64,000 nt of DNA from an uncultured Peptostreptococcaceae bacterium (GCA_964617505.1 CAZTZB010000002.1:24501-88500); one strand, 5' to 3'; numbered from the stretch's first letter, positions 2,658 to 44,134 are shown. Notes: a model not told the origin generated them from the letters alone. Numbers and translations are program-made.

Positions 2658-3560
2658 TTATAATATGCCTCTTATCTCAGACAGGTTTTTAATATTTTCA
2701 CGCTCCATGAAGCTTTCGATTTCTTCGATTATCCTTGTTCCCGCCCTCAAATCCATGAAATTTGCAGTCCCAATCTGAACACATGACGCCCCCGCCATAA
2801 TAAAAGATATAGCATCCTCTCCGGTAACAATCCCACCCATGCCCATTATGGGTACGTCGACGACTCTTGCCACCTGATGAACCATCCTTAAAGCTATGGG
2901 ACGAATTGCGGGTCCGGACAATCCTGCATAGGTATTGTCAAAAATTATTTTTCGCCTTTTCACATCAACCGCCATAGCTTGAATAGTATTAATTAAAGAA
3001 ATAGCATCTGCCCCTGCCTCTACACATGAAGAAGCAATTTCAGCAATGTCGCCCACGTTCGGCGACAACTTCACCATCAACATCTTCTTTGTATGCTTCC
3101 GGATTTCCTTTACTATACCATACGCCGAATCAGCATCGGTTCCAAAAGCCATACCGCCACTTTTTACATTGGGACACGATATGTTTAGCTCTATGATTTC
3201 AAACGGAGTAGCTTCTATTAAACGCACAGACTCTACATAGTCCTCTATCTTGGATCCGCTTACATTAACCAAAATCCTGGTGTCAAGCTTTTCAAGATAA
3301 GAGGCTTCATCTGTAAGAAATCCTTCAATACCAGGGTTTTCGAGCCCTACACTATTCATCATGCCCGAAGGCGTTTCCCAGACACGTATGCCCTTATTTC
3401 CATCTCTTTTCTCCAAAGTTATTCCCTTTGTGGATATTCCCCCCAGCTTGGAAACATCGTAACATTCTCCATATTCCTTTCCAAAGCCAAAGGTACCCGA
3501 GGCCATAACTACCGGATTTTTAAATCTTAAGTTTCCAAAATCGACTTGGCTACAATTCAT
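2658..3560 (-). CDS. pyrD: Dihydroorotate dehydrogenase 1B, catalytic subunit
   Basis: TIM-barrel DHODH motifs ([24 protein letters not shown]). The start at MNCSQVDF overlaps the pyrK stop. The 20 codons upstream in the ORF track lie inside pyrK. Confidence 0.9.
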
Positions 3561-4257
3561 CAAAGAACACATCCTCTCCTGCGAAAACGGGCCCGTCCTT
3601 ACATGTCTTTTTGTTTCCATTCTTTGTTTTACACGTACATACGAGACATGCCCCTATGCCGCAGGCCATGCGTTTTTCCATGGATACAAACACCTTGGCA
3701 CCATATGGCCTCGCTTTTTTAACTAAAGCCTCCATCATTGGCTCTGGTCCGCAGGCAAGGATAAGGTCATACTTAGATGGATCTAGGCTTTCAGTCACAA
3801 ATCCACCTATGTCTATCTGCATGGAATCTGCATACACTGAAAAGCGGTTCGAATTAATATCTTCATCCGAATATCCAAGATATATATCAAGTCTTTCGGG
3901 ACTCGATTTTCTTATCGTCTTAGCTGCGAACATAAGAGGCGCCGTTCCGAGTCCTCCACCCACAAGCGCAATTCGTCCTGTCTCCATGGGAAATCCCTTT
4001 CCAAATGGTCCGTCGATGTTTATTTCATCGCCAGGCTTTTTCCCTGCAAGTATACGGGTTCCTTCCCCGCAAACCCTATAAAGAAATACTATGCGGTCGT
4101 CCTCTAGATCATGAATACTTAAGGGTCTTGAAAGCACAGGGTACTCATCCCATGCACGAACCATGTAAAACTGCCCCATTCTTCCCTTAAAACTTCCCTC
4201 TACAGCAATCTCACGCACCGTTTCCGTCAAGGATTTATTGTACAAAATTTTACTCAT
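3550..4257 (-). CDS. pyrK: Dihydroorotate dehydrogenase electron-transfer subunit (FAD/2Fe-2S)
   Basis: 235 aa with an FNR-like fold and a C-terminal cluster [11 protein letters not shown]...C typical of PyrK. It sits directly upstream of pyrD. Confidence 0.9.
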
Positions 4258-5107
4258 ATGCCAGGTCCCTTCTCATCATTTCAACACGATTGCTTATTGT
4301 TTCCATAAAAGCGTCTTCATTATCGGTTTTTTGTGCATGTGAAATTATACCTCTTGATGAATTGACCACCGCGCACGGATCGCTTATCGCTTCCTTTATG
4401 TCTTTGCCTGTTCCTCCCTGAGCTCCATATCCCGGTACCAAAAAGAACATTCCGGGGCAAATCTTTCTCACTTCATGAAATTCACGGGTGTTTTTTATAC
4501 CCACCACTCCACCTATTGAACTGTATCCGCTTTTGCCCATGAAGTTAGATCCCCACTCAGCAACTTTTTTTGCAGTTTCAATATAGAGAGGGCTTCCGTC
4601 CGACATTGTCTTTTCTTGAAAATCCGCCGCGGATGGATTTGAGGTCTTGATCAAAACGAAGAGACCCTTATTTTTATTTTTTATATAATCATAATAGGGT
4701 GATATTGCGTCCTCTCCCATGTATGGATTAACCGTCATAAAATCAGCCTCGAACTCGCCGCTAAAATGCGCCTTGGCATATAGCCCCGCAGTAGAAGAAA
4801 TATCTCCCCTTTTCACATCAGCTATGGATATGGAATTCTTTTCCCTAAGATATTCCATTGTTTTTCCGTAGGCCCTCAGTCCTTCGATTCCCTCAGCTTC
4901 ATAGCATGCTATCTGCAGCTTGAAGCAGGCTGCCCTGCCTGATGCCGCATCTATAGCCAAACGGTTGAATGCGAAAATCCTGTCACTTTTAGCTCCATAT
5001 TTCTTTTTCAAAAATTCCGGCATATACTCCATCCGTATATCAAGTCCAAGGCAAATCATCCCCTTGGAAAGGACCTCATCGTGCAATCTGTCTACTATCA
5101 TAAACAA
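4250..5107 (-). CDS. pyrF: Orotidine 5'-phosphate decarboxylase (long type-2 form)
   Basis: 285 aa with the DVKRGDI motif containing the active-site Lys. Operon context supports the call. Confidence 0.9.
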   Translation of the reverse strand: MFMIVDRLHDEVLSKGMICLGLDIRMEYMPEFLKKKYGAKSDRIFAFNRLAIDAASGRAACFKLQIACYEAEGIEGLRAYGKTMEYLREKNSISIADVKRGDISSTAGLYAKAHFSGEFEADFMTVNPYMGEDAISPYYDYIKNKNKGLFVLIKTSNPSAADFQEKTMSDGSPLYIETAKKVAEWGSNFMGKSGYSSIGGVVGIKNTREFHEVRKICPGMFFLVPGYGAQGGTGKDIKEAISDPCAVVNSSRGIISHAQKTDNEDAFMETISNRVEMMRRDLAYE

Positions 5108-6266
5108 TTTCCCCCTCTTTCATCGTCAAAACAATCTCCCCTTTAGTCTCCCATCCGTCAAAAGGAGTATTCTTACCCTTAGATACGAAGTTTTCTGATG
5201 AAATTGTTTTTGTTATATCCAAGTCTGCAATAACTAGGTCTGCGTCAAATCCCTCTTCAAGGCGTCCCTTGGCAAGCCCAAGAAGTTCGGCAGGCTTTTC
5301 GGACATCATTTCAAGCAGCCTGGCAAGACCAATTTTCTCCTTTTCAAAAACAGTATTCACCATTTCAAATGCTATTTCCACATTTGATATTCCAGGGCTT
5401 CCATTCATTTTATCTTGCCTGCTGTGAGGAGCATGGTCAGTCCCTATCACGTCCACCAGACCACTCCTGGCCGCATCTAGAAGAGCATCCCTATCATCGG
5501 CTGTCCCAAAGGAAGGATTCACTCTATAGTCTATGCCTTGGGCGAACAGATGGTGCGGAGTAACTTCGCAGGTTAAGAGTCCCCCAAATGTAGATTTTCC
5601 TGCTCTTATAAGGTCCACAGTTTTTCTTTTGCTTATGTGGCAAATATGAAGTCTTCCAGGCGATTCGGTCATCGTTCCTAAATGCCTTCTGACTATTTTG
5701 GATTCCGGCTCGCAATGAGCCATGACAATCAAATCCATTTCCTGTGATTTACCTAGAATTTTCTTTGCTATTCCCAAATCCAAAAGTGTCTTTCCGTCGT
5801 CAGAAAAAAGCCTTGTAAGCTTTCTCATGGATTCAAGATCAACCATTTCTTTTCCTTCCAACCCCTTTGTAACAGCTGAAATCTGAAGAATATCGCAAAG
5901 CCCGACTTCGCCGTGCCTTTTCATTATTCTTTCATAAACCTCGGGACAATCGCAAACGGGATTGGTATTGGCCATTGTGCAAAGGGTGGTATATCCGCCC
6001 TTAACCGCAGCCGCCTCACCGGTCTCCATGGTTTCCTTGTGCTCCTGTCCAGGATATCTCATGTGAAAGTGCATGTCGGTGAAAGCCGGCATAAGACATA
6101 ATCTTTTTCCATCTATAGATTTTTGGCATAAGGCTAAGGCCGCTTCTATTTCAGCCGTATTGGGCGATTTCATTACCCTTTCAATCTTGCCGTCTTTTAT
6201 AAGAAGAGCCCCATACTCATCCATATGCGAATCGACCAATCTGACATTTTTAATGAGAGTATTCAT
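5076..6266 (-). CDS. pyrC: Dihydroorotase
   Basis: 396-aa amidohydrolase with DMHFHMR metal motif and GTDHAPH. It lies between pyrI and pyrF. Confidence 0.9.
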   Translation of the reverse strand: MNTLIKNVRLVDSHMDEYGALLIKDGKIERVMKSPNTAEIEAALALCQKSIDGKRLCLMPAFTDMHFHMRYPGQEHKETMETGEAAAVKGGYTTLCTMANTNPVCDCPEVYERIMKRHGEVGLCDILQISAVTKGLEGKEMVDLESMRKLTRLFSDDGKTLLDLGIAKKILGKSQEMDLIVMAHCEPESKIVRRHLGTMTESPGRLHICHISKRKTVDLIRAGKSTFGGLLTCEVTPHHLFAQGIDYRVNPSFGTADDRDALLDAARSGLVDVIGTDHAPHSRQDKMNGSPGISNVEIAFEMVNTVFEKEKIGLARLLEMMSEKPAELLGLAKGRLEEGFDADLVIADLDITKTISSENFVSKGKNTPFDGWETKGEIVLTMKEGEIVYDSRQIAR

Positions 6267-7612: not shown

Positions 7613-7658
7613 TTTGCCTTCCTTCCTGGCATCTCTGTGCCAAATTAAAGTAGATTTT

Positions 7659-7754
7659 AAAAAAGCCTCCCCGCTGACGCGGAAAGGCATAGTTCTCATG
7701 TAAAAAATAGTTTCATTATAGCTACCTTTCCGACCTCTCGGGACCAGATTAAAG
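7659..7754 (-). promoter_or_regulatory. PyrR-type transcription attenuator (binding loop + antiterminator/terminator) in the pyrB leader
   Basis: The minus-strand RNA reads CUUUAAUCUGGUCCCGAGAGGUCGGAAAGG, close to the PyrR loop UCCAGAGAGG with flanking UUUAA/AAGG. A 10-bp terminator GCCUUUCCGC-GUCA-GCGGGGAGGC plus U6 follows at 7659-7688. CGGAAAGG of the loop is complementary to the terminator 5' arm. Confidence 0.75.
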
Positions 7755-7789
7755 ATATTCTCATTTAAAAAAATATATCACGGATTTAT

Positions 7790-9273: not shown

Positions 9274-9522
9274 TCACCTAACCTCATCCTCCCATTCCGA
9301 AAGAATCTGCTCAAAAGCCGCTATTTGCGCATTTATTGCTATATCCATAGCCTCTCCCCTGCCGCTCCAGTCATTTCCTTGTTTAATATAAAGATCCTGC
9401 AACTGCATTTTCAGATCCTCTCTGCTATAGGAGTCATCTGATTCTTTTAAGGCATTAAAATTATAGTATACATTATTGAATATTTTTTCAAATTTTTCTT
9501 CTCTCCACGTTTCCAGAAACAT
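9274..9522 (-). CDS. Hypothetical small acidic helical protein (82 aa)
   Basis: AAAGGTG SD lies 8 nt upstream, and the gene starts 46 nt after the ABC ATPase gene on the same strand. I recognised no family. Confidence 0.5.
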   Translation of the reverse strand: MFLETWREEKFEKIFNNVYYNFNALKESDDSYSREDLKMQLQDLYIKQGNDWSGRGEAMDIAINAQIAAFEQILSEWEDEVR

Positions 9523-9568
9523 TTATTTCACACCTTTCTAAATGACTTTCAAAATTTTTTTGCGTTTA

Positions 9569-10345
9569 TCATAGAATGGAATCCAAAAATTCCCTTGCAT
9601 ATTCACTTTCCGGATTCTCCATTATGGCTTTTACCTGTCCTATTTCCACTATTCTACCTTCGTGAATAATGGCAATTCTGTCGCAAATTTTCTTTGCTGT
9701 ATTCAAATCCTTGCTAATAAAAAGATAGCTGGTGCCGTAAAGTTCTTTGATTTTCTGAATCGTATCAATCACTTGCCCTTTGATTGATTGATCTAGTCTA
9801 TCGGTGGGTTCATCAAGTACTATCAAATCCGGGCGCCACAATGCGGCCAGAGCTATGCCCACCTTCTTAACATCCATTTCATCTAATCGGCTTATATGGC
9901 AATAGGCGATGGACGGATTTAAGCCTACCATCTCCAAAAGCTCCATCATTTCCAGTGGAGCCCAATTTTTTTGGATTTTTTTGCAATTGATAATCGACTC
10001 GCCTATGACCTCTCCTATTGTTAACCTGCTATCAACATGCTGCGCGACATCTTGGAAGACAATTTGGATTTTTCCATGGATTTTCCTCTTCTCTTTCCCC
10101 TTTAAACGTCCAATGTCCTTGCCTCTAAATTCAATTCTGCCGCAATCCGGAACTTCTAGCCCTGCAATCAATTCTCCAAGGGTCGTTTTCCCGCTCCCTT
10201 TTCCACCTATAAGCCCAAGCGTTTCATTTTCAAAAATCTCCAAACTTGCGCAGTCTAAGGCTTTAGCAATTATTTTTGGGCTAAACAGATTTTTCCGGTA
10301 TACAAATTCCTTCCTTAAATTGATTGCTTCAATCAATGTCTTCAT
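9569..10345 (-). CDS. ABC transporter ATP-binding protein (OppF/DppF-like)
   Basis: Walker A GGKGSGKTT and Walker B LIVLDEPT. The start at MKTLIEA forms an ATGA overlap with the upstream ATPase stop. Confidence 0.88.
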   Translation of the reverse strand: MKTLIEAINLRKEFVYRKNLFSPKIIAKALDCASLEIFENETLGLIGGKGSGKTTLGELIAGLEVPDCGRIEFRGKDIGRLKGKEKRKIHGKIQIVFQDVAQHVDSRLTIGEVIGESIINCKKIQKNWAPLEMMELLEMVGLNPSIAYCHISRLDEMDVKKVGIALAALWRPDLIVLDEPTDRLDQSIKGQVIDTIQKIKELYGTSYLFISKDLNTAKKICDRIAIIHEGRIVEIGQVKAIMENPESEYAREFLDSIL

Positions 10346-11313
10346 AACCCTTCCCCTCCCACAGGATAGAAGCATCTGACCTTGTGAAGGCCCTCCCCTG
10401 CAAGCTTGGGCATCTCATTAGCGCAAACATATTTTCTACGCTCACAGCGTTCTATGAAAGGGCATCTCATTGTATTGTCCCCAAATCTTGTCTGACCCCC
10501 AGGCAATGCATACATGTCTTCATTTTTTTCTATTGCCGACTCAATGCTTCGAACGAGTCCCGCAGAATACGGATGGTCGGCTCCTTCAATAAATTGATTG
10601 ACCGTCCCCTCCTCCACAACCATTCCATGGTACATTACTATGATCCTATCGCTAAGGAGTCTTGCCAACTCAAAATCCCTTGTCATTACGATTATAGATA
10701 TCCTGTACTCAATACTTATTCTCTTTAGGAGCACCAGCATCCCTTTTTTCGCCATGCCGCCATAGTTTTCCGCAGGCTCCTCAATAATAAGTATTTTAGG
10801 TCTGCATATGCTAGCCATTGCCAGCCCTATTCTAAATAAAAGTTCATCTTCGAGTTGGGATGTAAAGGCCTTTCTTATTCTCTTGGGATCCTCGATTCCA
10901 AGGCTCTTAAGGACTTCGTCGACTCCGATTTGCCCACCTTCAAATCCATAGTGTTTTTCCAATTCCTTCAATTGCTTGCCTATGGTCAGATAGGGATTAA
11001 GCACGCTTCTCGGATTTCCAAATACATATGAGATTTCACTCCCACGAATTTTTCTCAAATCGGATTCATCCATAGAAAGAATGTCATGTTCCAAATAAAT
11101 AGCCTCTCCAGATAGATTGTATTGATTTTTATTTAAAAGCCCAAGCAATGCCTTGGGTAAATATTCCTTGCCGCTGCCGCTTTCGCCGATAATTCCCAAT
11201 ATTCCGCCCTGCTCAAGCTGAAAATCCATGTTTCGTATAAGCTTTTCCGTTTTTCCAATTAGCTTCTCGGAAACAGAAAGATTGCCGACCCTGAGTATTG
11301 TTTTATGTCTCAT
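10342..11313 (-). CDS. ABC transporter ATP-binding protein (OppD/DppD-like) with Cys-rich C-terminal extension
   Basis: Walker A GESGSGKE and Walker B ILIIEEP. The C-terminal CPFIERCERRKYVC motif is typical of Opp/Dpp ATPase tails. Confidence 0.88.
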   Translation of the reverse strand: MRHKTILRVGNLSVSEKLIGKTEKLIRNMDFQLEQGGILGIIGESGSGKEYLPKALLGLLNKNQYNLSGEAIYLEHDILSMDESDLRKIRGSEISYVFGNPRSVLNPYLTIGKQLKELEKHYGFEGGQIGVDEVLKSLGIEDPKRIRKAFTSQLEDELLFRIGLAMASICRPKILIIEEPAENYGGMAKKGMLVLLKRISIEYRISIIVMTRDFELARLLSDRIIVMYHGMVVEEGTVNQFIEGADHPYSAGLVRSIESAIEKNEDMYALPGGQTRFGDNTMRCPFIERCERRKYVCANEMPKLAGEGLHKVRCFYPVGGEGL

Positions 11314-11323
11314 GTTTTTCCTC

Positions 11324-13375
11324 CTATCGGCCGAGCCTTAAAATGGTCTCAACTATCATGTTGCCGAGGTCTTCAACATCCATAAAGCTTCCTGCATACG
11401 GCTCAAAGCCAAGCCTTATTGTATCAATACCACTTTCTTCAATCATTGTTTCCTCAGCGAAGCTTTGAATCTTACTATATTCAAAAGGATAATCCTTTTC
11501 ATGCAAAACAGACATTATTCTGCTGTCTACCCTTGCCGAGTAACCTGGATTGTCTATTTCCGCTCTATAAACCACAATGCCGGAATCCTCTTGATAAACC
11601 CCAGTCAAATCAATATAAAGAGCGACTTTTTCCTTGCTAAACGGCATGTTCTTCGAAAAGAATTCCATTCCCTCTCCTTCTTCTCCTCCCGCAGAATCGA
11701 AAAACGCAAAAGCAATTGTCTTATCTATTCTATCTTTCCTTCGAGCCAGCTGGCTCGCAAGCTCAAGTCCAAATTCTATCTTTCCGCTCTTTATAGGTTC
11801 ATACTGCCAACCATAGGACAATCCAATGATTATTATTTCTTCATTTGCACATCCCGTGTTTTCAAGCTCTCCTAAAACATAGACGCCTTGGCCATCGTTT
11901 GATTTCGCTATTTGCCTGTAAGATAGCTCCCCTATCCCATTAGCAAAAGCTTCGGCCAGCTCTTCGCTTATAGTCAGAATCGGTTTAGCGGATAGTTCGC
12001 TCCCCTGGGCAGTGTGACGATATCTCATCTCGGCTCCTACAATTAAAACGCCTCTTGCTCCATATTCCGATAGTAGTTTATCCGCAAAATTTATAATATC
12101 CTCGTCACTATATCTGCGCTTTCCAATCAATACCCAACTGCCTGAAAAATCCCGATGGCTTTCATCCAATGAATAATAATCCATTCTTCGTCCGTCGAAT
12201 ACCTTCCCAGATACATCGAATCTTCCGAAGGTGTCTGCAAAGTAATCTCTGCCGGTCAAGTACTTGATTTTATCTTCTCCTGAGACAAAAGTCAGCTCAT
12301 CGTAAATTGGCGCATAGCTTTCGTTTCTTTCATAACTTTGCATAAGAGAATCCGAAACCGGTGAAAAGCCTATCTTCTCTAATTCGTCTGCTATCATCCG
12401 GGCTCTTTCACCAGCCTCTTCGCTGCCCGGAATCAGTTCTCCCGTTCTTTCAAAGTCTAGTTCATGGCGCATATCCGACATGCTAAAGTCAGGAATAAAA
12501 AGATTTAAATATACAAACAGAACCGCCAAAACCGATGCTATGCATAGCGCTACTGCGATTGCCGAGAATCTCAATTTGTCATATGGATTCTCAATCAAGC
12601 GCCTGCTTCTTATCCTCATACCTTCCGCCATAAGATTAAAAGCAAATATAACTATAAAAAACGCACATGCCATGTAAAGAGCAAGCCATGGCTTTTCCTG
12701 CCAATACGGAAGAAATTGTACACCTGTCTTTGACCCGATGTCTAAGCTTTCAAAGAGTCCATAGAATACGCAAAGTTGCGCTATAAGTGTCAATACTCTT
12801 GCTGTTTGATCAAAAAACATAGCCGGAAGGTCATCCTTTAAGAGTCTCCACATATTTCCAAAGGCAACAGAAGAATATCCTTTACCTGCAGCATCGCGGC
12901 CTTTTGATGCCATGCCGTCCTGAAGCTCTTTCATCCCAATCGAAATTCTTTGTGCCTCTCCGCTCCAGCCGACAAGGCTCAACACGGCTGTAAAAACCAC
13001 CGAAAATGTTGCGTCGAACCTTCCGCCTGCAAATATTCCCACAAGGACAAGCAGACTGACTATTATGGGTGGTAAAATCTTGAAAACTGATTCAAATAGG
13101 CTTATCAGCTTTCCTGCGACCCAGCTGCCAATGCCTGCCATAAGCCCAATCACAATTGCAATTATAAGGCGAATTGCCGCAACCAAAACTGCTATAAGTG
13201 AAGCGATACGGATTCCGCTCATTATAAAACACAGATATTCGATTTCGCTTAAATTCATTATATTATCCAAAGAATAGATTCTTGCAGGAAGCATGAATTC
13301 GGGAAAAAGCATAAGTAAAAGAAGAGCAAAAGTCAATATGGAGCCCGCTGCCAAATGGTAGTTTCTCTTTTCCAT
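11324..13375 (-). CDS. ABC permease (OppC-like, N-terminal ~290 aa) + extra TM + C-terminal ~380-aa degenerate M28/PA peptidase-like ectodomain
   Basis: Multiple TM segments sit in the first 290 aa, followed by a basic loop (RIRSRRL), an additional TM helix (FSAIAVALCIASVLAVLFVY) and a soluble domain with M28-like strings (IIIIGLSYG, TIAFAFFDSAGGEEGEGMEFF, ALYIDLTG). Confidence 0.72.
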   Translation of the reverse strand: MEKRNYHLAAGSILTFALLLLMLFPEFMLPARIYSLDNIMNLSEIEYLCFIMSGIRIASLIAVLVAAIRLIIAIVIGLMAGIGSWVAGKLISLFESVFKILPPIIVSLLVLVGIFAGGRFDATFSVVFTAVLSLVGWSGEAQRISIGMKELQDGMASKGRDAAGKGYSSVAFGNMWRLLKDDLPAMFFDQTARVLTLIAQLCVFYGLFESLDIGSKTGVQFLPYWQEKPWLALYMACAFFIVIFAFNLMAEGMRIRSRRLIENPYDKLRFSAIAVALCIASVLAVLFVYLNLFIPDFSMSDMRHELDFERTGELIPGSEEAGERARMIADELEKIGFSPVSDSLMQSYERNESYAPIYDELTFVSGEDKIKYLTGRDYFADTFGRFDVSGKVFDGRRMDYYSLDESHRDFSGSWVLIGKRRYSDEDIINFADKLLSEYGARGVLIVGAEMRYRHTAQGSELSAKPILTISEELAEAFANGIGELSYRQIAKSNDGQGVYVLGELENTGCANEEIIIIGLSYGWQYEPIKSGKIEFGLELASQLARRKDRIDKTIAFAFFDSAGGEEGEGMEFFSKNMPFSKEKVALYIDLTGVYQEDSGIVVYRAEIDNPGYSARVDSRIMSVLHEKDYPFEYSKIQSFAEETMIEESGIDTIRLGFEPYAGSFMDVEDLGNMIVETILRLGR

Positions 13376-13376
13376 A

Positions 13377-15740
13377 TCAATACCCTCCCTTCGGATTCAG
13401 GAGAGCGACAAGTGCCTTAGAAAGCAGCACAGACACAATATATACGAATCCTATTAAAATCATTGCCGAAAAAACCGTTTTCGGGCTGTTAATTTCCACA
13501 AGCAAGCGGTTCATGATACCCGGCAAAGCGAATAAATACTCAACCACTATTAGATTTGACAAGACAATCACCATCAATTTAGGAATAAGCTTCAAAGCAT
13601 TTATGAATACTCCCTTTAAAATATGTCTCGATATTTCTGTTCTTGTAAAGCCCCTAGCTTTTGCCAAAAGAACATAATCCTTATGCATTTCTCCTGCAGC
13701 CAATCTTGACACCTCTCCAGAAAGCCAAAGAAGCGGAAGAATTGCCATTGAAATTATAGGAAGCGTCAATGTTTCAAAACCAAGCAGCAAGGTCCCTCCA
13801 TCTGCCATATCAACTACGATATATAGAGTTGAAACATACAAAAGAGCAAGTGCAATAAATGCCTGCGGAACTGACAATACCATAAGCGGCAATATTCCCC
13901 TGCCTTCCAATTTCCCTCCGCGCATCGTCCCGCGATGCATCCCAGCAAGAAGACCCCCCATAAATGCTATAGCTGCAGATGCGGTCGCTATCCCAACACT
14001 TAAAGCAAAACTTTCATCAAATATATTATTGAAATCTTCAATTCCAACATTCTTTATAAAGGAATATATTCTTTCACATGTGCCGTTAAACGACCTTAAA
14101 TCCAGTAGCTGCAGGTTTGACACAAAGGCAGTCAGCGCTATTACCCCCAAAGCCAGAGCTGCAAAGCTTGCCAGATCCTCCACCAGCATACGCAGGCTTG
14201 AAAAATACAATCTGCCAATTGATTTGCTTCCAAAGTATGCGCCAGGATGTCTTCTATTGATTGTATAGAAAGCAAATGAAATATAGAGAAAGGCAATAAG
14301 AATCAGTCCGAACACAGACGCTCCAATATCCATGTATCCCGAGTAAGGCATATCATAGCAATCAGCCTCTATAAAGTCGAGACATACGGACAGGTTTTCT
14401 GTAAACACAGTCTTGTTCCATTGCCCCATATTGTCTTTTGGAGTAGCGCTAATCCCATTAAGTTCTTCTCTTGATGCGCTGGCAAGCATCACAGCCGAAA
14501 GCCCTGCTTGACTCAAGGCTTTATGGCTTCCCTCTAAATAGGCATCTTCAATATCGAATAGGTCCACATAAAAAAAGGAATTCGGTGTGCAATGGTCTTT
14601 AATAATCATTTCTGCAAGCTTTTCCGATGAAGAACTGCCTGCATAGTAAACAAGCTCTGTCTTATTCGAATTCTTCCATCCGAGATTATTCAAAAATATG
14701 AACTCCGTTTTTTCAAGCGGAAACAAGGGATTATTAATGTATTCATTCATCCCGGCGGCTCCTGTTTTTTCGCCGTCAAGAAACATAAAAACAATGTTTT
14801 TCCTGGGAAGCAAATTGCTTTCACTTAGTTTTTTTGAAAGCTCCAAAAGCCCCGAAACACCGCTTGCATTGTCTATGACTCCAGGCGCATAGCCGCTTTC
14901 GCCGTACCTTCCATAGCCATCGTATCCTGTTGCTATAATCAAGCATTCCTTGCTTTTCAGAGCCGGAATATAAGCAATTATATTTTCACCCGCAAGATAT
15001 GGAAATCCTATTTTTACGCGAATCCTAGCCCCGCCAAAGACTCCATCCTCAGCGCCGTCACTCAGCTTGTCATATACCTTCCCTGTTATACGTGCCACAA
15101 AAATGGATTCGATGCTCTTTCCCGAAGCATCGACACTCTTTACTTCAATTTTAGATCCGTCAGATTCCCCATCGTAATAAAGTATGCCTTGTCCCCCGCT
15201 CCTAATAGCGTGAATCTTAGCTTCATATGTAAGATTGCTTGTCCTTGCCGCAACCACGCGGCCCGCAAGCATATAGCCTGGAATATCCTCTATAGGTCCA
15301 TCAGCGAGCAGTATTTCCCCCACATAGTCTATGCTTCCTCCCAAACCTTTCGTCAAGGGATTGTAGTCTTTGTATATTTCAAGGGTATCTTCAAAGCCTG
15401 CGCCTTTATCTTCAAGCTTGAATTCTGCGGATTCGACAATAGCCGTAGTTGCATAAAATGGAATCCCATATCCCTCTCCACCTAGGCTTTCAATATCTTG
15501 CCCACTCAATACACCCTTTATGTATTCTGATGTTTTTCCCCCTCCAGGGCTTCCTATCTGCCGTCCTTCATAGGCATCATCCGTCAGTTCATCTATGTGT
15601 ACAAACGCTTCCACTTCGTCTATTTCGCCATTTATAGCTTTGCCTCTTGAAGTATTGCTGTAGAAAAATAAGGCGAGCAAAAGCAGGGGTATGAGCAAAA
15701 TTACTATTGTATAAAATTTATTTTTTTTCAACAATCCCAC
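13377..15740 (-). CDS. ABC permease (OppB-like) with a ~440-aa M28/PA peptidase-like domain inserted between TM1 and TM2
   Basis: An N-terminal TM is followed by M28-like motifs (YEGRQIGSPGG; NIIAYIP..LIIATGYDG; APGVIDNASGVSGLLELS; IVFMFLDGEKTGAAGMNEY; EGSHKAL). The C-terminal permease core carries an EAA-like loop (LLAKARGFTRTEISRHILKG). The ORF begins with GTG, so the exact start is uncertain. Confidence 0.78.
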   Translation of the reverse strand: MGLLKKNKFYTIVILLIPLLLLALFFYSNTSRGKAINGEIDEVEAFVHIDELTDDAYEGRQIGSPGGGKTSEYIKGVLSGQDIESLGGEGYGIPFYATTAIVESAEFKLEDKGAGFEDTLEIYKDYNPLTKGLGGSIDYVGEILLADGPIEDIPGYMLAGRVVAARTSNLTYEAKIHAIRSGGQGILYYDGESDGSKIEVKSVDASGKSIESIFVARITGKVYDKLSDGAEDGVFGGARIRVKIGFPYLAGENIIAYIPALKSKECLIIATGYDGYGRYGESGYAPGVIDNASGVSGLLELSKKLSESNLLPRKNIVFMFLDGEKTGAAGMNEYINNPLFPLEKTEFIFLNNLGWKNSNKTELVYYAGSSSSEKLAEMIIKDHCTPNSFFYVDLFDIEDAYLEGSHKALSQAGLSAVMLASASREELNGISATPKDNMGQWNKTVFTENLSVCLDFIEADCYDMPYSGYMDIGASVFGLILIAFLYISFAFYTINRRHPGAYFGSKSIGRLYFSSLRMLVEDLASFAALALGVIALTAFVSNLQLLDLRSFNGTCERIYSFIKNVGIEDFNNIFDESFALSVGIATASAAIAFMGGLLAGMHRGTMRGGKLEGRGILPLMVLSVPQAFIALALLYVSTLYIVVDMADGGTLLLGFETLTLPIISMAILPLLWLSGEVSRLAAGEMHKDYVLLAKARGFTRTEISRHILKGVFINALKLIPKLMVIVLSNLIVVEYLFALPGIMNRLLVEINSPKTVFSAMILIGFVYIVSVLLSKALVALLNPKGGY

Positions 15741-15768
15741 CGCCTATGAATACCTTCTTTAATAATTT

Positions 15769-15805
15769 CAAGAAAACACCCTACCTTTTGCGAGGTGTTT
15801 TCTTG
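15769..15805 (-). terminator. 12-bp hairpin between the FAD-oxidoreductase gene and the ABC operon (possible terminator)
   Basis: CAAGAAAACACC-N13-GGTGTTTTCTTG. No clean U-tract follows on either strand. Confidence 0.4.
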
Positions 15806-15834
15806 AAATTAAATGTACGATTCAAAATATATTC

Positions 15835-39574: not shown

Positions 39575-40936
39575 TCACCTCCAAGTTTTTATGAGTTCCT
39601 TCATTTCATCGTCATCCAATACGACGTCCGTATATCCAGGTATTATATCGTCTGGAATATTCTGCTTCTGATAGATTTTTTCAACCACATATGCATTGCC
39701 ATTCTTGCGCAGAGCAATAAAATATTCCGATTCGAAAAGCCTTGCCCTTTCTTCTAACATATTCTCCTGTATCGTTTCCACTATATACATAGGATAGACA
39801 ATTCCATGTTTTTCGTCAACATAACCTATCTCAATCGCTCCAGGGCTTTCCTCCACATTTCTTACAGAAACCCCTTCGAACCACTTGTATGGAAAATCAA
39901 TTCTTATATCATTATCTTGATCGATGTAACTTTTTAACACCAATTTAAGGCCATATTCTCCATCCCATTGATACCAAGAAGTTATCCACGGCGTATCAAC
40001 CAAAGAATAATTATTGCCGTATGGCTCCTCATATATCCCTATTTCAATTATACCGTCTCCATTTATATCCTGGCTTTCCACAGAATACTGTTTGAATGTA
40101 TTCCCGTAGTAGCTCGAATCTCCTCCGCCAAGTGCATTTTGCAAGGTGCCGTCTTCAACCACAAGAAGGTATGTAGCCGCAGAATGAGCTCCGATTCCCA
40201 TGTCTAGGAATATTCCCTTCTTGCCACTACTCGCATAGCCAAAAGCCACATTATAGTATCCATTGATGTAAGGATCAAGCTCTATCTCATCAATCACGCT
40301 GAAACCATCTCCAGAAAAAGCCACCAGCCTAGCCTTGGAAGAAGGTTCGCTAAAATTGCGATCGAGATCTAGAAGAAGTAGTTCTTCTCCCAATTTTTCA
40401 TCAAAATCTCCCACCACCATTTCCGTATAAGTATCTCTGTATAACTCCCCTTCATTATTTCCGTACTCGTAAATTATCATGTATTTATTTAAGAAAATGT
40501 CAAGCTTGTCAGCCGACCACGCTATCACAATCTCTTTTTTCCCATTCCCGGTTAGGTCGTAGAATCCACTATATGAAATATCAACACCTGACGATTCAAT
40601 CTTGTCAACAACCTTCCAGTTCCCATCTGTTTTGCCGAATATGTAAGCGCCCAACCTATAGTTTGCAACATCCTTAAAATATACAACTGCCTCTTCATTA
40701 TCATCGCCATCCAAATCCACAAAATTTATCGCTCCCAGGCTTTCAGGATTGCCCGGCTTATAGAGGATTTCATCCTTTAAAAGCTCATCATCCACGAATT
40801 CCTTTATAGTTTGCTGATTGACTCCAAGGCTAGGCGGCTCCATCAAATCTCCGGGCGAACCGGCGCCTGCAACAAAGCAACCTGTCAACAATTGAGCCAG
40901 GCATATTACTGTAAAAATAAGTCCGTATCGTTTCAT
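39575..40936 (-). CDS. Lipoprotein with FG-GAP/VCBS-like Ca-binding repeats
   Basis: Lipobox LLTGC after MKRYGLIFTVICLAQ. Repeated D-x-D/N-G-D motifs (DLDGDDNEEAVV, DLTGNGKKEIVI, DINGDGIIEI). It is the first gene of the operon with the two-component system. Confidence 0.62.
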   Translation of the reverse strand: MKRYGLIFTVICLAQLLTGCFVAGAGSPGDLMEPPSLGVNQQTIKEFVDDELLKDEILYKPGNPESLGAINFVDLDGDDNEEAVVYFKDVANYRLGAYIFGKTDGNWKVVDKIESSGVDISYSGFYDLTGNGKKEIVIAWSADKLDIFLNKYMIIYEYGNNEGELYRDTYTEMVVGDFDEKLGEELLLLDLDRNFSEPSSKARLVAFSGDGFSVIDEIELDPYINGYYNVAFGYASSGKKGIFLDMGIGAHSAATYLLVVEDGTLQNALGGGDSSYYGNTFKQYSVESQDINGDGIIEIGIYEEPYGNNYSLVDTPWITSWYQWDGEYGLKLVLKSYIDQDNDIRIDFPYKWFEGVSVRNVEESPGAIEIGYVDEKHGIVYPMYIVETIQENMLEERARLFESEYFIALRKNGNAYVVEKIYQKQNIPDDIIPGYTDVVLDDDEMKELIKTWR

Positions 40937-40990
40937 CCAAGTCACCCCGTCCATTAAATAAAGTCTTTTTTTTTATTGTATACCATAGTC

Positions 40991-42681: not shown

Positions 42682-44055
42682 TCAAACAACACCCATAGTG
42701 GCGAAAACAATAGCTATAGCCGTTGCAAAAATAGGAATGACAACTGTACACATACCGATATCAGCATAAGATTCCCTATGAGTCAATCCACAGATTCCAA
42801 GAAGAGTTATAACTGCGCCGTTATGCGGCAAGCTGTCCAAGCCTCCGCAAGCCATGGCTGCGATTCTGTGGAAGGCTTGAGGATCGATTCCGAGAGCCAA
42901 AGCCTTTTGCATGTAGATGTCTCCGAGTGCTCCGAGGGCTATACTCATACCGCCTGAAGCCGAACCCGTGATACCTGCCAATACACTTGTTGAAACTGCC
43001 AAGGAAATGAGCGGAGTTCCAGGTATTGCCAGTATTGCTGTCTTAACGAGTGCAAAAGCGCCCAAAGTCTTGATAACATTTCCGTAACCAACTTCTGAAG
43101 ATGTATTAACGATAGCAAGCAGCGAACCGAAAGCACCTTGGTTTACACAATTCTTGACGTCGCCAATTTTGTTTTTGAAAAGAGCAATTGTAAGAAGGAC
43201 AGCTGCTACGAGTGAAATTATGATACTCCAGATTCCTCTTACTTTTGCAATGGAAGTTCCGTAATCTGCAAGATATGCTGCTTCCATGTTTGCAAATACA
43301 AATTTAGATAATGCAAAGTTTAGACCCAATACCAGGAAGATGGGAAGAAGCGCCATCATTAGGCTTGGAAGTTCGTCATAAGCGATTTCTTTGATGTTTT
43401 CATTCGGATGGTCTCCATAGCCCTCACCCTTGGCCATTGCAGCCTTGGATCTTCTTTGAAGCCAGAATACTCCACCACCGAACATTACTGCCGCGCCAAT
43501 TAGTCCAAGGAAAGGTGCTGCCCATGGAGTCGTTTCGAAGAAAGGCATCGGTATTGCATTTTGAATCTGAGGCGTACCCGGAAGGGCCGTCATTGTGAAT
43601 GTGAAAGATCCTAAGGCGATAGCTGCAGGGATAAATCTTTTCGGAACATCAGCTTCTCTAAAGAGAGCTGCTGCTATCGGGTAAACTGCAAATGCAACAA
43701 CAAACAATGAAACGCCGCCATATGTAAGGATACCGCAGGAAAGTACAACTGCTGTGATAGCTTTGCCTTTTCCAAGTTTATCGGTTATTCCATGGGCAAT
43801 TGCTTTTGCTGCGCCCGACTCGTCCATTAATTTACCAAAGATGGCTCCCAAGAGAAAGAGTGGGAAATACGCCTTTGCGTACCCTGCGAAAGCCGTCATG
43901 AAAACCTCTGTGTAACTGGCCATTAGCGGAACGTCTCCGGACATTAGTGCTGCAAGTCCTGCAAGAATCGGGGCCAAAATTAAAACAGTAATTCCTCTAT
44001 AAGCAAGATACATCAATAATCCTAGAGATATAATAATACCGAATATTCCTAACAT
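42682..44055 (-). CDS. GntP-family anion permease (candidate hydroxy-acid importer)
   Basis: About 12-14 TM segments. The sequence pattern is typical of GntP/DsdX permeases. The start at the second ATG has correct SD spacing. Confidence 0.78.
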   Translation of the reverse strand: MLGIFGIIISLGLLMYLAYRGITVLILAPILAGLAALMSGDVPLMASYTEVFMTAFAGYAKAYFPLFLLGAIFGKLMDESGAAKAIAHGITDKLGKGKAITAVVLSCGILTYGGVSLFVVAFAVYPIAAALFREADVPKRFIPAAIALGSFTFTMTALPGTPQIQNAIPMPFFETTPWAAPFLGLIGAAVMFGGGVFWLQRRSKAAMAKGEGYGDHPNENIKEIAYDELPSLMMALLPIFLVLGLNFALSKFVFANMEAAYLADYGTSIAKVRGIWSIIISLVAAVLLTIALFKNKIGDVKNCVNQGAFGSLLAIVNTSSEVGYGNVIKTLGAFALVKTAILAIPGTPLISLAVSTSVLAGITGSASGGMSIALGALGDIYMQKALALGIDPQAFHRIAAMACGGLDSLPHNGAVITLLGICGLTHRESYADIGMCTVVIPIFATAIAIVFATMGVV

Positions 44056-44134
44056 GGTCATTCTCCTTTTTTTATTATTTTTCCCTTATAAATTTTCACA
44101 TACTTCTATTCCCATTTATTTATACTGAAAACCC

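Follow-up and report, generated by a model that had tools for sequence, protein, structure and literature searches.

In the prevailing view, a type I ATP-binding cassette (ABC) importer cannot do without a solute-binding protein (SBP), which confers specificity and triggers ATP hydrolysis. In the Opp/Dpp/Nik group (PepT, TC 3.A.1.5), represented by Escherichia coli OppBCDF (8Z21) and DppBCDF (8Z1V) and by Mycobacterium tuberculosis OppABCD (8J5Q), a cluster-C SBP accompanies two BPD_transp_1 permeases with EAA-type loops, an OppD-like ATPase with an oligo_HPY region and four cysteines, and an OppF/NikE-like ATPase. The E. coli DppBCDF translocator shows no ATPase activity without DppA docking (PMC12136057), so that an SBP-less relative needs a substitute. 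Here we describe such a relative, a minus-strand operon in a 64,000-nucleotide (nt) stretch of DNA from an uncultured Peptostreptococcaceae bacterium (GCA_964617505.1 CAZTZB010000002.1:24501-88500), hereafter called the window, with positions counted from its first letter. It shares with the Opp/Dpp/Nik systems the two kinds of permease and of ATPase, the operon order and the tight coupling, and by these components its product is, on sequence grounds, a member of the group. It differs in having no SBP gene and in the M28/PA-like ectodomain, about 400 amino acids (aa) long, that is attached to each permease through extra transmembrane (TM) helices. The known systems have competent ATP sites, whereas the ATPases of the clade to which the window belongs are without the signature and the H-loop histidine.

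On balance, we lean towards reading the locus as a four-subunit Opp/Dpp-type complex that, in the window clade, has become a ligand-binding surface complex without import driven by ATP hydrolysis; a receptor role of this kind appears plausible from the retained and lost motifs described below. A preliminary description of the locus had seen in it an importer with two Opp/Dpp-type ATPases, in which the ectodomains may act as receptors or as a residual exopeptidase. Its M28/PA-like ectodomains, predicted to face outward, its ligand losses, the genuine fusion and the absence of an adjacent OppA gene are supported. The ATPases are not ordinary ones, an importer role is doubtful here, an exopeptidase is unlikely, and the architecture occurs in other genomes too.

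An Opp-type operon with predicted ectodomains on both permeases

The four tightly coupled genes at 9569-15740 (minus strand) code for an OppB-like permease (P1), an OppC-like permease (P2) and two Opp/Nik-type ATPases. Their features, all on the minus strand, are as follows, with the evidence for each in parentheses (ORF, open reading frame):

13377-15740, minus: P1 permease, 787 aa (ORF; Pfam M28 and BPD_transp_1; OppB 8Z21_A; hydropathy)
14343-15647, minus: P1 ectodomain, residues ~32-466, predicted M28 fold with a PA-like insert and a degenerate metal site (profile against PDB; motif tables)
15006-15350, minus: PA-like insert in the P1 ectodomain, residues ~131-245 (2EK8 alignment within the full-length match)
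13380-14342, minus: P1 membrane part, residues ~467-787, with the extra TM helix at 476-494, a basic cytosolic loop and the OppB-like core (Pfam; PDB; hydropathy)
11324-13375, minus: P2 permease, 683 aa (ORF; NCBIfam DppC; DppC 8Z1V_B; BPD_transp_1 in homologues; hydropathy)
11327-12499, minus: P2 pseudo-M28/PA ectodomain, residues ~293-683 (hhalign; PDB profile match; family alignment)
10342-11313, minus: ATPase1, OppD-like, 323 aa (Pfam; alignments to Rv1281c, orthologues and family)
9569-10345, minus: ATPase2, NikE/OppF-like, 258 aa from the MKTLIE start (Pfam; NCBIfam; alignments)

Read from the sequence, the P1/P2 junction is TGA-T-ATG with a 1-nt gap, P2 and ATPase1 are joined by TAG, 10 nt and ATG, and the two ATPase genes share an ATGA overlap; a purine-rich ribosome-binding site is present at every junction. 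These ORFs and junctions match exactly the four coupled genes with which the preliminary description began.

P1 leads from an N-terminal TM helix through the M28/PA-like ectodomain and an extra TM helix to an OppB-like six-TM core. Pfam recognizes Peptidase_M28 at residues 253-456 (E = 7e-15) and BPD_transp_1 at residues 596-784 (E = 3e-11), the P1 profile matches E. coli OppB (PDB 8Z21_A) with E = 2e-14, and the core contains an EAA-type loop (AKARGF...). Hydropathy resolves eight hydrophobic segments, namely the N-terminal helix, a second extra helix past a 435-aa acidic domain and the six helices of the OppB core, and the loop at 496-515 is basic, with 4 K/R and zero D/E. Pfam, the OppB profile match and hydropathy thus agree with the order of one TM helix, M28-like domain and OppB-like core first proposed for this protein. 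In P2 the order is a divergent OppC/DppC-like core, a basic loop at 254-269 (RIRSRR...), an extra helix (TM7) and a 383-aa acidic C-terminal domain that is again M28/PA-like; here too hydropathy and the orthologue profiles are in accord with the arrangement originally suggested. The eight-TM layout of P1 with its added N-terminal helix resembles that of MalF, which has added N-terminal helices of its own and a large periplasmic loop (also termed P2 in that protein).

OppB and OppC have an N-in/C-in topology, which, together with the added helices, would make both large domains extracellular. Hydropathy and positive-inside counts fit the outward placement proposed at the outset, and both ectodomains are acidic; placed by hydropathy and charge, both should lie outside the cell.

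The ectodomains as M28 homologues with lost catalytic sites

The nearest sequence relatives of the ectodomain are YwaD/BsAP of Bacillus subtilis (6HC6), the Aneurinibacillus AM-1 aminopeptidase (2EK8) and the Aeromonas/Vibrio leucyl aminopeptidase (1AMP), which a profile from ten P1 ectodomains matches with E = 4e-25, 2e-24 and 8e-19, respectively. The family profile aligns end to end with YwaD and 2EK8, the position of the PA insert included; against 2EK8 the alignment extends over profile positions 4-429, across the PA domain. Weaker matches of the same profile are to transferrin receptor 1 (TfR1; E about 1e-10), GCPII and glutaminyl cyclases. YwaD, 2EK8, TfR and GCPII all have the PA domain as an insertion in the M28 domain. 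Searched on its own, the insert finds the TfR1 apical domain at the top (E = 0.13-0.27) and then 2EK8 (E = 0.59), all sub-threshold, and Pfam PA is found in 3 of 14 family inserts with a best, likewise sub-threshold, E of 0.007. Since the insert alone gives only such matches, we name it no more than PA-like. Of the M28 and PA strings that had been noticed in P1, the M28 part is thus borne out by Pfam, and the PA part is the weakest of the assignments.

The aminopeptidases just named are soluble, secreted di-zinc enzymes. In the present proteins the domain is joined to an ABC permease, by a tether or as an insertion, and four of the five ligands are replaced in the window clade. We take the co-catalytic zinc ligands of the Aeromonas enzyme, whose numbering we follow, to be H97, D117, E152, D179 and H256, with E151 as the general base. 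Mapped through the family profile aligned to 1AMP and the PA-containing 2EK8, the window P1 has G272 for H97, K325 for E152, N351 for D179 (a variable position) and A432 for H256; it keeps D117 as D290 and the general base as E324. Throughout the window clade, H97, E152 and H256 are Gly, Lys and Ala/Gly. The preliminary description had read these losses as GYD for HxD, GEK for EE and FLNNLG for xxDxxG, and the profile alignment to 1AMP and 2EK8 arrives at the same replacements.

By itself P2 yields weak signals (M28, E = 0.078; NCBIfam DppC, E = 1.9e-5; DppC 8Z1V_B, E = 0.14), and its homologues match BPD_transp_1 at E = 1e-10 to 1e-12. The decisive comparison with the P1 ectodomain used 11-18 P2 homologues taken from related loci: the two profiles align in hhalign with a probability of 99.6% (E = 1e-23, 377 columns), and a second, independent alignment gave a probability of 99.0% (E = 2.5e-18; 358-377 columns over both runs). 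These deeper alignments supersede a shallow comparison of eight close sequences, which was marginal at a probability of 41%. The P2 ectodomain profile also matches PDB 2EK8 with E = 9e-4. The M28 catalytic set is absent from the P2 ectodomain in every member examined, where HxD is replaced by SYN/SYGW and EE by DGT. The early impression that the losses go further in P2 than in P1 is therefore right: none of the set occurs in the P2 family alignment. With the zinc-ligand set incomplete in one and absent in the other, both window ectodomains are best regarded as predicted non-peptidase M28 homologues. In one JGI contig, in the cluster of P0067, the P2 orthologue is seemingly split into P0251 (338 aa) and P0252 (356 aa). 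The gene may be genuinely disrupted in that population, or a frameshift or an error in sequencing may have produced the split.

These ligand losses bear directly on the suggestion that a residual exopeptidase delivers its products into the channel. The retention of E324 (= E151) and of the bridging D290 (= D117) would speak for it, and the M28-complete members of the family, described below, plausibly do work in this way. However, with four of five ligands gone from P1, three of them clade-wide and D179 variable, neither zinc site can form; P2 has no catalytic set in any member examined, and the ATPases are degenerate. We regard such an activity in the window clade as highly improbable.

The fusion family and its loci

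A profile search over 1.84 billion cluster representatives (clusters at 50% identity) recovered about 40 clusters of 780-840-aa proteins that align over their full length to P1 (E = 1e-87 to 1e-28). Pfam finds BPD_transp_1 in 39/39 sampled members and M28 in 34/39, with a best M28 E of 1.7e-42. Word-indexed searches gave eight close clusters per permease, labelled as Peptostreptococcaceae or as Clostridia metagenome-assembled genomes; when such a search was run with the 39-member alignment, most of the matches were plain M28 peptidases, and the family representatives were not recovered. A single-protein scan of genome contigs gave one relative, and a metagenome scan seeded by a 10-member subset added four further full fusion loci among 80. 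The few members with source names are Clostridia (Peptostreptococcaceae, Gudongella) labelled only "M28 family peptidase". Because the annotations read only this or "hypothetical", nothing in the databases points to transport.

Gene neighbourhoods were assembled from contig look-ups and the metagenome scan, followed by local hidden Markov model searches. The four-gene unit (P1-like, P2-like of 733-767 aa, OppD-like and OppF-like) is present in the loci L001-L005, L007, L010-L014 and L017, and the shorter contigs L015 and L016 hold partial units. Gene order varies, being P2-ATPase-ATPase-P1 in L013, and L011 contains two P1 paralogues (3499-5973 and 10001-12469), both M28-complete, flanking one P2 and ATPase set. 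The fusion recurs in at least 13 independent loci. In the relatives, which the preliminary description had proposed to survey, it is kept, with no artefact of separate peptidase and permease genes, and its presence in many independent assemblies rules out an assembly or frameshift artefact. A PCAT-type peptidase-ABC exporter was also considered and rejected, as it differs in fold, membrane side and peptidase family.

The complete M28 set is retained in the P1 of L007, L011a, L011b, L013 and L015 and in the representatives P0081, P0082, P0084, P0090 and P0101. Partial loss is seen in L010, the syntenic sister of the window clade (E152 = Asn, H256 = Gly), and in L012 the set is largely lost, as in the window clade. 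The architecture is thus not unique to the window genome: it marks out a whole family, and in many of its members the M28 domain is apparently still active; the window clade appears as a derived state within it. Since the P1 set is complete in several members and the P2 set is absent throughout, the ancestral arrangement looks like one active and one pseudo M28 domain. The family is previously undescribed: literature searches found no fusion of an M28/PA ectodomain with an ABC permease, in keeping with the earlier remark that no characterised transporter has such an architecture.

Related proteins extend beyond the four-gene unit. Single-chain OppB-OppC-TM-M28 fusions of about 1170-1220 aa are found as P0060, P0220 and P0221 (L006 2726-6235; L009 10001-13660), with no ATPase gene visible in the available flanks of L006 and L009. 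Many giant proteins of 1600-2150 aa (P0117-P0216) match profile positions ~36-360, that is, the N-terminal M28/PA part (E = 1e-39 to 1e-22).

Degeneration of both ATPases in the window clade

ATPase1 matches ABC_tran (E = 6e-14), oligo_HPY (E = 8e-10) and the OppD subfamily (E = 5e-52); ATPase2 matches ABC_tran (E = 1e-21) and NikE (E = 3e-51), and oligo_HPY is absent from it. Their motifs, read from an alignment to M. tuberculosis OppD (Rv1281c) and from orthologue and family alignments, are as follows:

Walker A: ATPase1 GESGSGKE (Glu for Ser/Thr); ATPase2 intact
Q-loop: ATPase1 Gly for Gln; ATPase2 intact
Signature: ATPase1 LEDEL versus LSGGE; ATPase2 LDEMD versus FSGGQ
Walker B: ATPase1 IIEEP, Glu for Asp (ED in L001 and L002); ATPase2 intact
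D-loop: ATPase1 NYG; ATPase2 present but variable, RLD (KVD/KVN in L001/L002)
H-loop His: ATPase1 Arg or Ser (Arg in the window); ATPase2 Lys or Arg (Lys in the window)

These degenerate states are common to the window, L005, L001 and L002, whereas at all loci outside this clade both ATPases are canonical (GESGSGKT/S, FQ, LSGGQ, DEP and (T/S)HD). This includes L010, which has the same flanking genes as the window. Each ABC ATP site needs the signature of the partner subunit; with both signatures lost, neither ATP site of the window is canonical. The two ordinary Opp/Dpp ATPases of the preliminary description are hence not upheld, as both have lost LSGGQ and the H-loop His, and ATPase1 more besides. 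The loss of ATP-driven cycling in the window clade is a strong inference from these motifs, and ATPase2 may still bind ATP or another nucleotide. Literature searches on doubly degenerate ABC ATPases found nothing relevant.

The ectodomain had further been proposed to replace the SBP as the receptor for ATP-driven import. Given the loss of the signatures and H-loop histidines from both ATPases, this is doubtful in the window clade; it fits L012 better, where a degenerate M28 domain is paired with canonical ATPases, a combination that points to a role of the ectodomain beyond catalysis. The corresponding alternative for the window clade is a working ATP-driven importer, in which the pseudo-peptidase ectodomains capture substrate and dock in the place of the SBP and ATPase2 hydrolyses ATP via a non-canonical site. 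It can draw on the invariance among orthologues of the ATPase2 Walker A Lys/Thr, Walker B Asp-Glu and Q-loop Gln, on the EAA-type loops and the retention of all four subunits under purifying selection, and on L012 as an instance within the family of a receptor-only ectodomain with an active transporter. Yet there is no signature at either composite site, where LEDEL/LGDEL and LDEMD/LDMLD put acidic residues in place of SGG; both H-loop histidines are replaced, the ATPases were accelerated on the stem of the clade, and the membrane cores are the least conserved part. We consider a working importer unlikely.

The C-terminus of ATPase1 has four cysteines (CPF..RC......C...RC) kept across the family, the degenerate clade included. 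They resemble the site in the ATPases of the E. coli Dpp system, whose C-termini hold [4Fe-4S] clusters (PMC12136057).

Selection after motif loss

Pairwise Nei-Gojobori dN/dS values were computed among lineages within the window clade, all of which post-date the motif loss; the deeper pairs are saturated in dS, and the pair of the window and L005 (dS 0.4-0.6) is the most reliable:

P1: dN/dS 0.23-0.30
P2: dN/dS 0.17-0.29
ATPase1: dN/dS 0.14-0.16
ATPase2: dN/dS 0.10-0.18
82-aa gene downstream of the operon: dN/dS 0.05-0.23
Flanking FAD enzyme: dN/dS 0.03-0.05
Flanking MatE: dN/dS 0.05-0.09

All four operon genes are under purifying selection, with dN/dS of 0.10-0.30. Further up, on the stem of the clade, the ATPases evolved faster: those of L010 are 50% and 57% identical to the distant L011a, whereas those of the window are only 36% and 41% identical to it.

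Within the clade, invariant columns make up 25-41% of the ectodomains and 22-26% of the membrane cores. Among 15-mers, conservation peaks where the active-site motifs once stood (LIIATGYDGYGRYGE and DNASGVSGLLELSKK in P1; QYEPIKSGKIEFGLE in P2), and 52% of columns near the motifs are invariant versus 34% elsewhere (Fisher p = 0.017). The replacement residues are themselves invariant, as in K325, GESGSGKE and LD.(M/L)DVK. Because both the blocks around the former active sites and the replacements are conserved, the pattern fits retained binding by remodelled pockets and does not fit decay.

This evidence also weighs on the possibility that the operon is a decaying relic that now serves no function and will end as pseudogenes. 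Catalytic residues have been lost together in two unrelated enzyme modules, and the operon evolves much faster than its neighbours, P1 being 48% identical at the species distance at which the adjacent FAD enzyme is 93% identical. Set against this, the ORFs are intact and their translational coupling is kept in the window, L005, L001 and L002, clusters of the clade drawn at 90% identity contain full-length proteins, and the low dN/dS values and invariant replacements apply to the period after the loss. A relic appears quite improbable to us.

Absence of an adjacent binding protein

No SBP_bac_5 or OppA-type gene is present in the operon, and a scan of ten window ORFs, nine with 451-572 aa and one with 396 aa, found no SBP. 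In the 12 other family loci, which represent several lineages and gene orders, none is adjacent within about 8-10 kb. The missing OppA gene of the preliminary description thus holds for the operon and for related loci alike. The ectodomains themselves have no SBP family match in Pfam, NCBIfam or PDB profile searches. A capture domain within the permease chain has a parallel in OpuA and GlnPQ, whose receptor domains are fused covalently to the permease polypeptide (PMC11065425; PMC8025302). Theirs is an SBP fold, in contrast to the M28/PA fold predicted here on both permeases, so that the link is one of analogy.

A conventional Opp system might still be served by an orphan OppA-type lipoprotein encoded elsewhere, the ectodomains being accessory. 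The genomes are seen as fragments only, and there is a precedent in Pseudomonas aeruginosa, where orphan SBPs such as DppA1-A5 serve Opp/Dpp translocators (PMC4206461). Against such a protein stand the consistent absence of an adjacent SBP_bac_5 gene just noted and the two outer ectodomains of ~400 aa, which would probably hinder SBP docking; moreover, an orphan OppA leaves the degenerate ATPases unexplained. We think this arrangement improbable.

Neighbouring genes and elements

Two features flank the operon, in agreement with the acidic protein downstream and the hairpin and unrelated FAD enzyme upstream that had been noted there:

9274-9522, minus: acidic, predicted-soluble protein, 82 aa (ORF; conservation; no family match)
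15767-15807, minus: hairpin between the FAD-enzyme gene and P1 (sequence; fold energy)

A 46-nt spacer with no hairpin in it precedes the 82-aa gene. Outside the window clade, only L010 (16436-16738, overlapping the ATPase2 stop) has the gene for the 82-aa protein with the operon. The protein is better conserved than the transporter subunits, its identity being 67-82% versus 36-79% for P1 over the same pairs. Searches of Pfam, NCBIfam and PDB gave no relative of it.

The hairpin has a 19-bp stem and a folding energy of -29.8 kcal/mol (z = -7.6). It is probably the terminator of the upstream FAD-enzyme gene, marking the operon boundary, but a regulatory function is another possibility. A clean U-tract is absent, and the outer helix is able to pair with sequence beside the P1 ribosome-binding site. 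Promoter and terminator consensus scans near the operon were uninformative. An Rfam search of the whole window identified neither a riboswitch nor a leader close to the operon; the sole gathering-score match is a PyrR binding site (RF00515, 56.8 bits, 7656-7759, minus strand) upstream of pyrB-pyrI-pyrC-pyrF, which are downstream of the operon. Elsewhere in the window, two 459-aa ORFs (39575-40954 and 42682-44061, both minus strand) between a two-component system and a CoA-transferase/sigma-54 activator region have no Pfam match at E <= 1e-5.

Function and evolution of the complex

In the ancestral machine, the paired ectodomains would most likely have formed a built-in module for capture or processing and for docking that replaced OppA. 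The importers of the family would be independent of an SBP, their ectodomains capturing peptides, in some members trimming them, and supplying the docking signal otherwise given by a protein of the DppA/OppA type. For such M28-intact members, a plausible model is the pairing of ACE2 or aminopeptidase N with the amino-acid transporter B0AT1, in which an exopeptidase stands beside a nutrient transporter; those partners are non-covalently associated and unrelated eukaryotic proteins, the transporter is a secondary one, and the model does not extend to the window clade.

In the window clade, transport energisation would have been lost and the complex kept as a pseudo-peptidase on a pseudo-ATPase transporter scaffold, acting as a receptor, sensor or scaffold. 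More speculatively, its function may involve the 82-aa cytosolic protein conserved alongside it. Transferrin receptor 1 and nicastrin are catalytically inactive M28-fold receptors with lost metal ligands; they too combine a surface M28-like domain and a PA or apical insert with a binding role. They differ in being eukaryotic single-pass proteins unrelated to ABC transporters, and the functional likeness is an analogy. None of OpuA/GlnPQ, MalF, TfR1/nicastrin and ACE2/aminopeptidase N-B0AT1 shares the present architecture.

Several points count against a binding complex without ATP-driven import. The loss of both peptidase and ATPase activity rests on motifs, and with Walker A, Walker B and the Q-loop still present in ATPase2, non-canonical hydrolysis may be possible. 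The SBP survey covers the 64-kb window and contig fragments, and an orphan OppA could lie elsewhere. AlphaFold2 predictions from 8 close sequences each reached a pLDDT of 43 for P1 and 40 for P2 and are unusable as 3D models; the ectodomains may sit over the permease entrance. The deeper pairs behind the selection estimates are saturated in dS, and the constraint, though real, is relaxed, since dN/dS of 0.1-0.3 is two- to six-fold above the neighbours.

Taking the family and the window clade together, we offer tentatively, as possible rather than probable, a joint reading. The family would be the first type I importer lineage to dispense with the SBP, by means of a heterodimer of active and pseudo M28/PA domains on its permeases that couples exopeptidase activity or peptide capture to translocation. 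The window clade would be a transporter-derived receptor with the peptidase and both ATP sites silenced, selection acting on the remodelled pockets, and an output via the degenerate ATPase dimer and perhaps the 82-aa protein.

If it is true that an Opp-type family without an SBP carries peptidase-fold domains on both permeases, it represents a different solution to substrate delivery and a natural case of an enzyme physically coupled to a transporter. Its members form a natural series, from active M28 domains with active ATPases, through degenerate M28 domains with active ATPases, to the window clade, in which both are silenced. Such a series could show what the ectodomain does and how a transporter is converted to non-transport use under selection.

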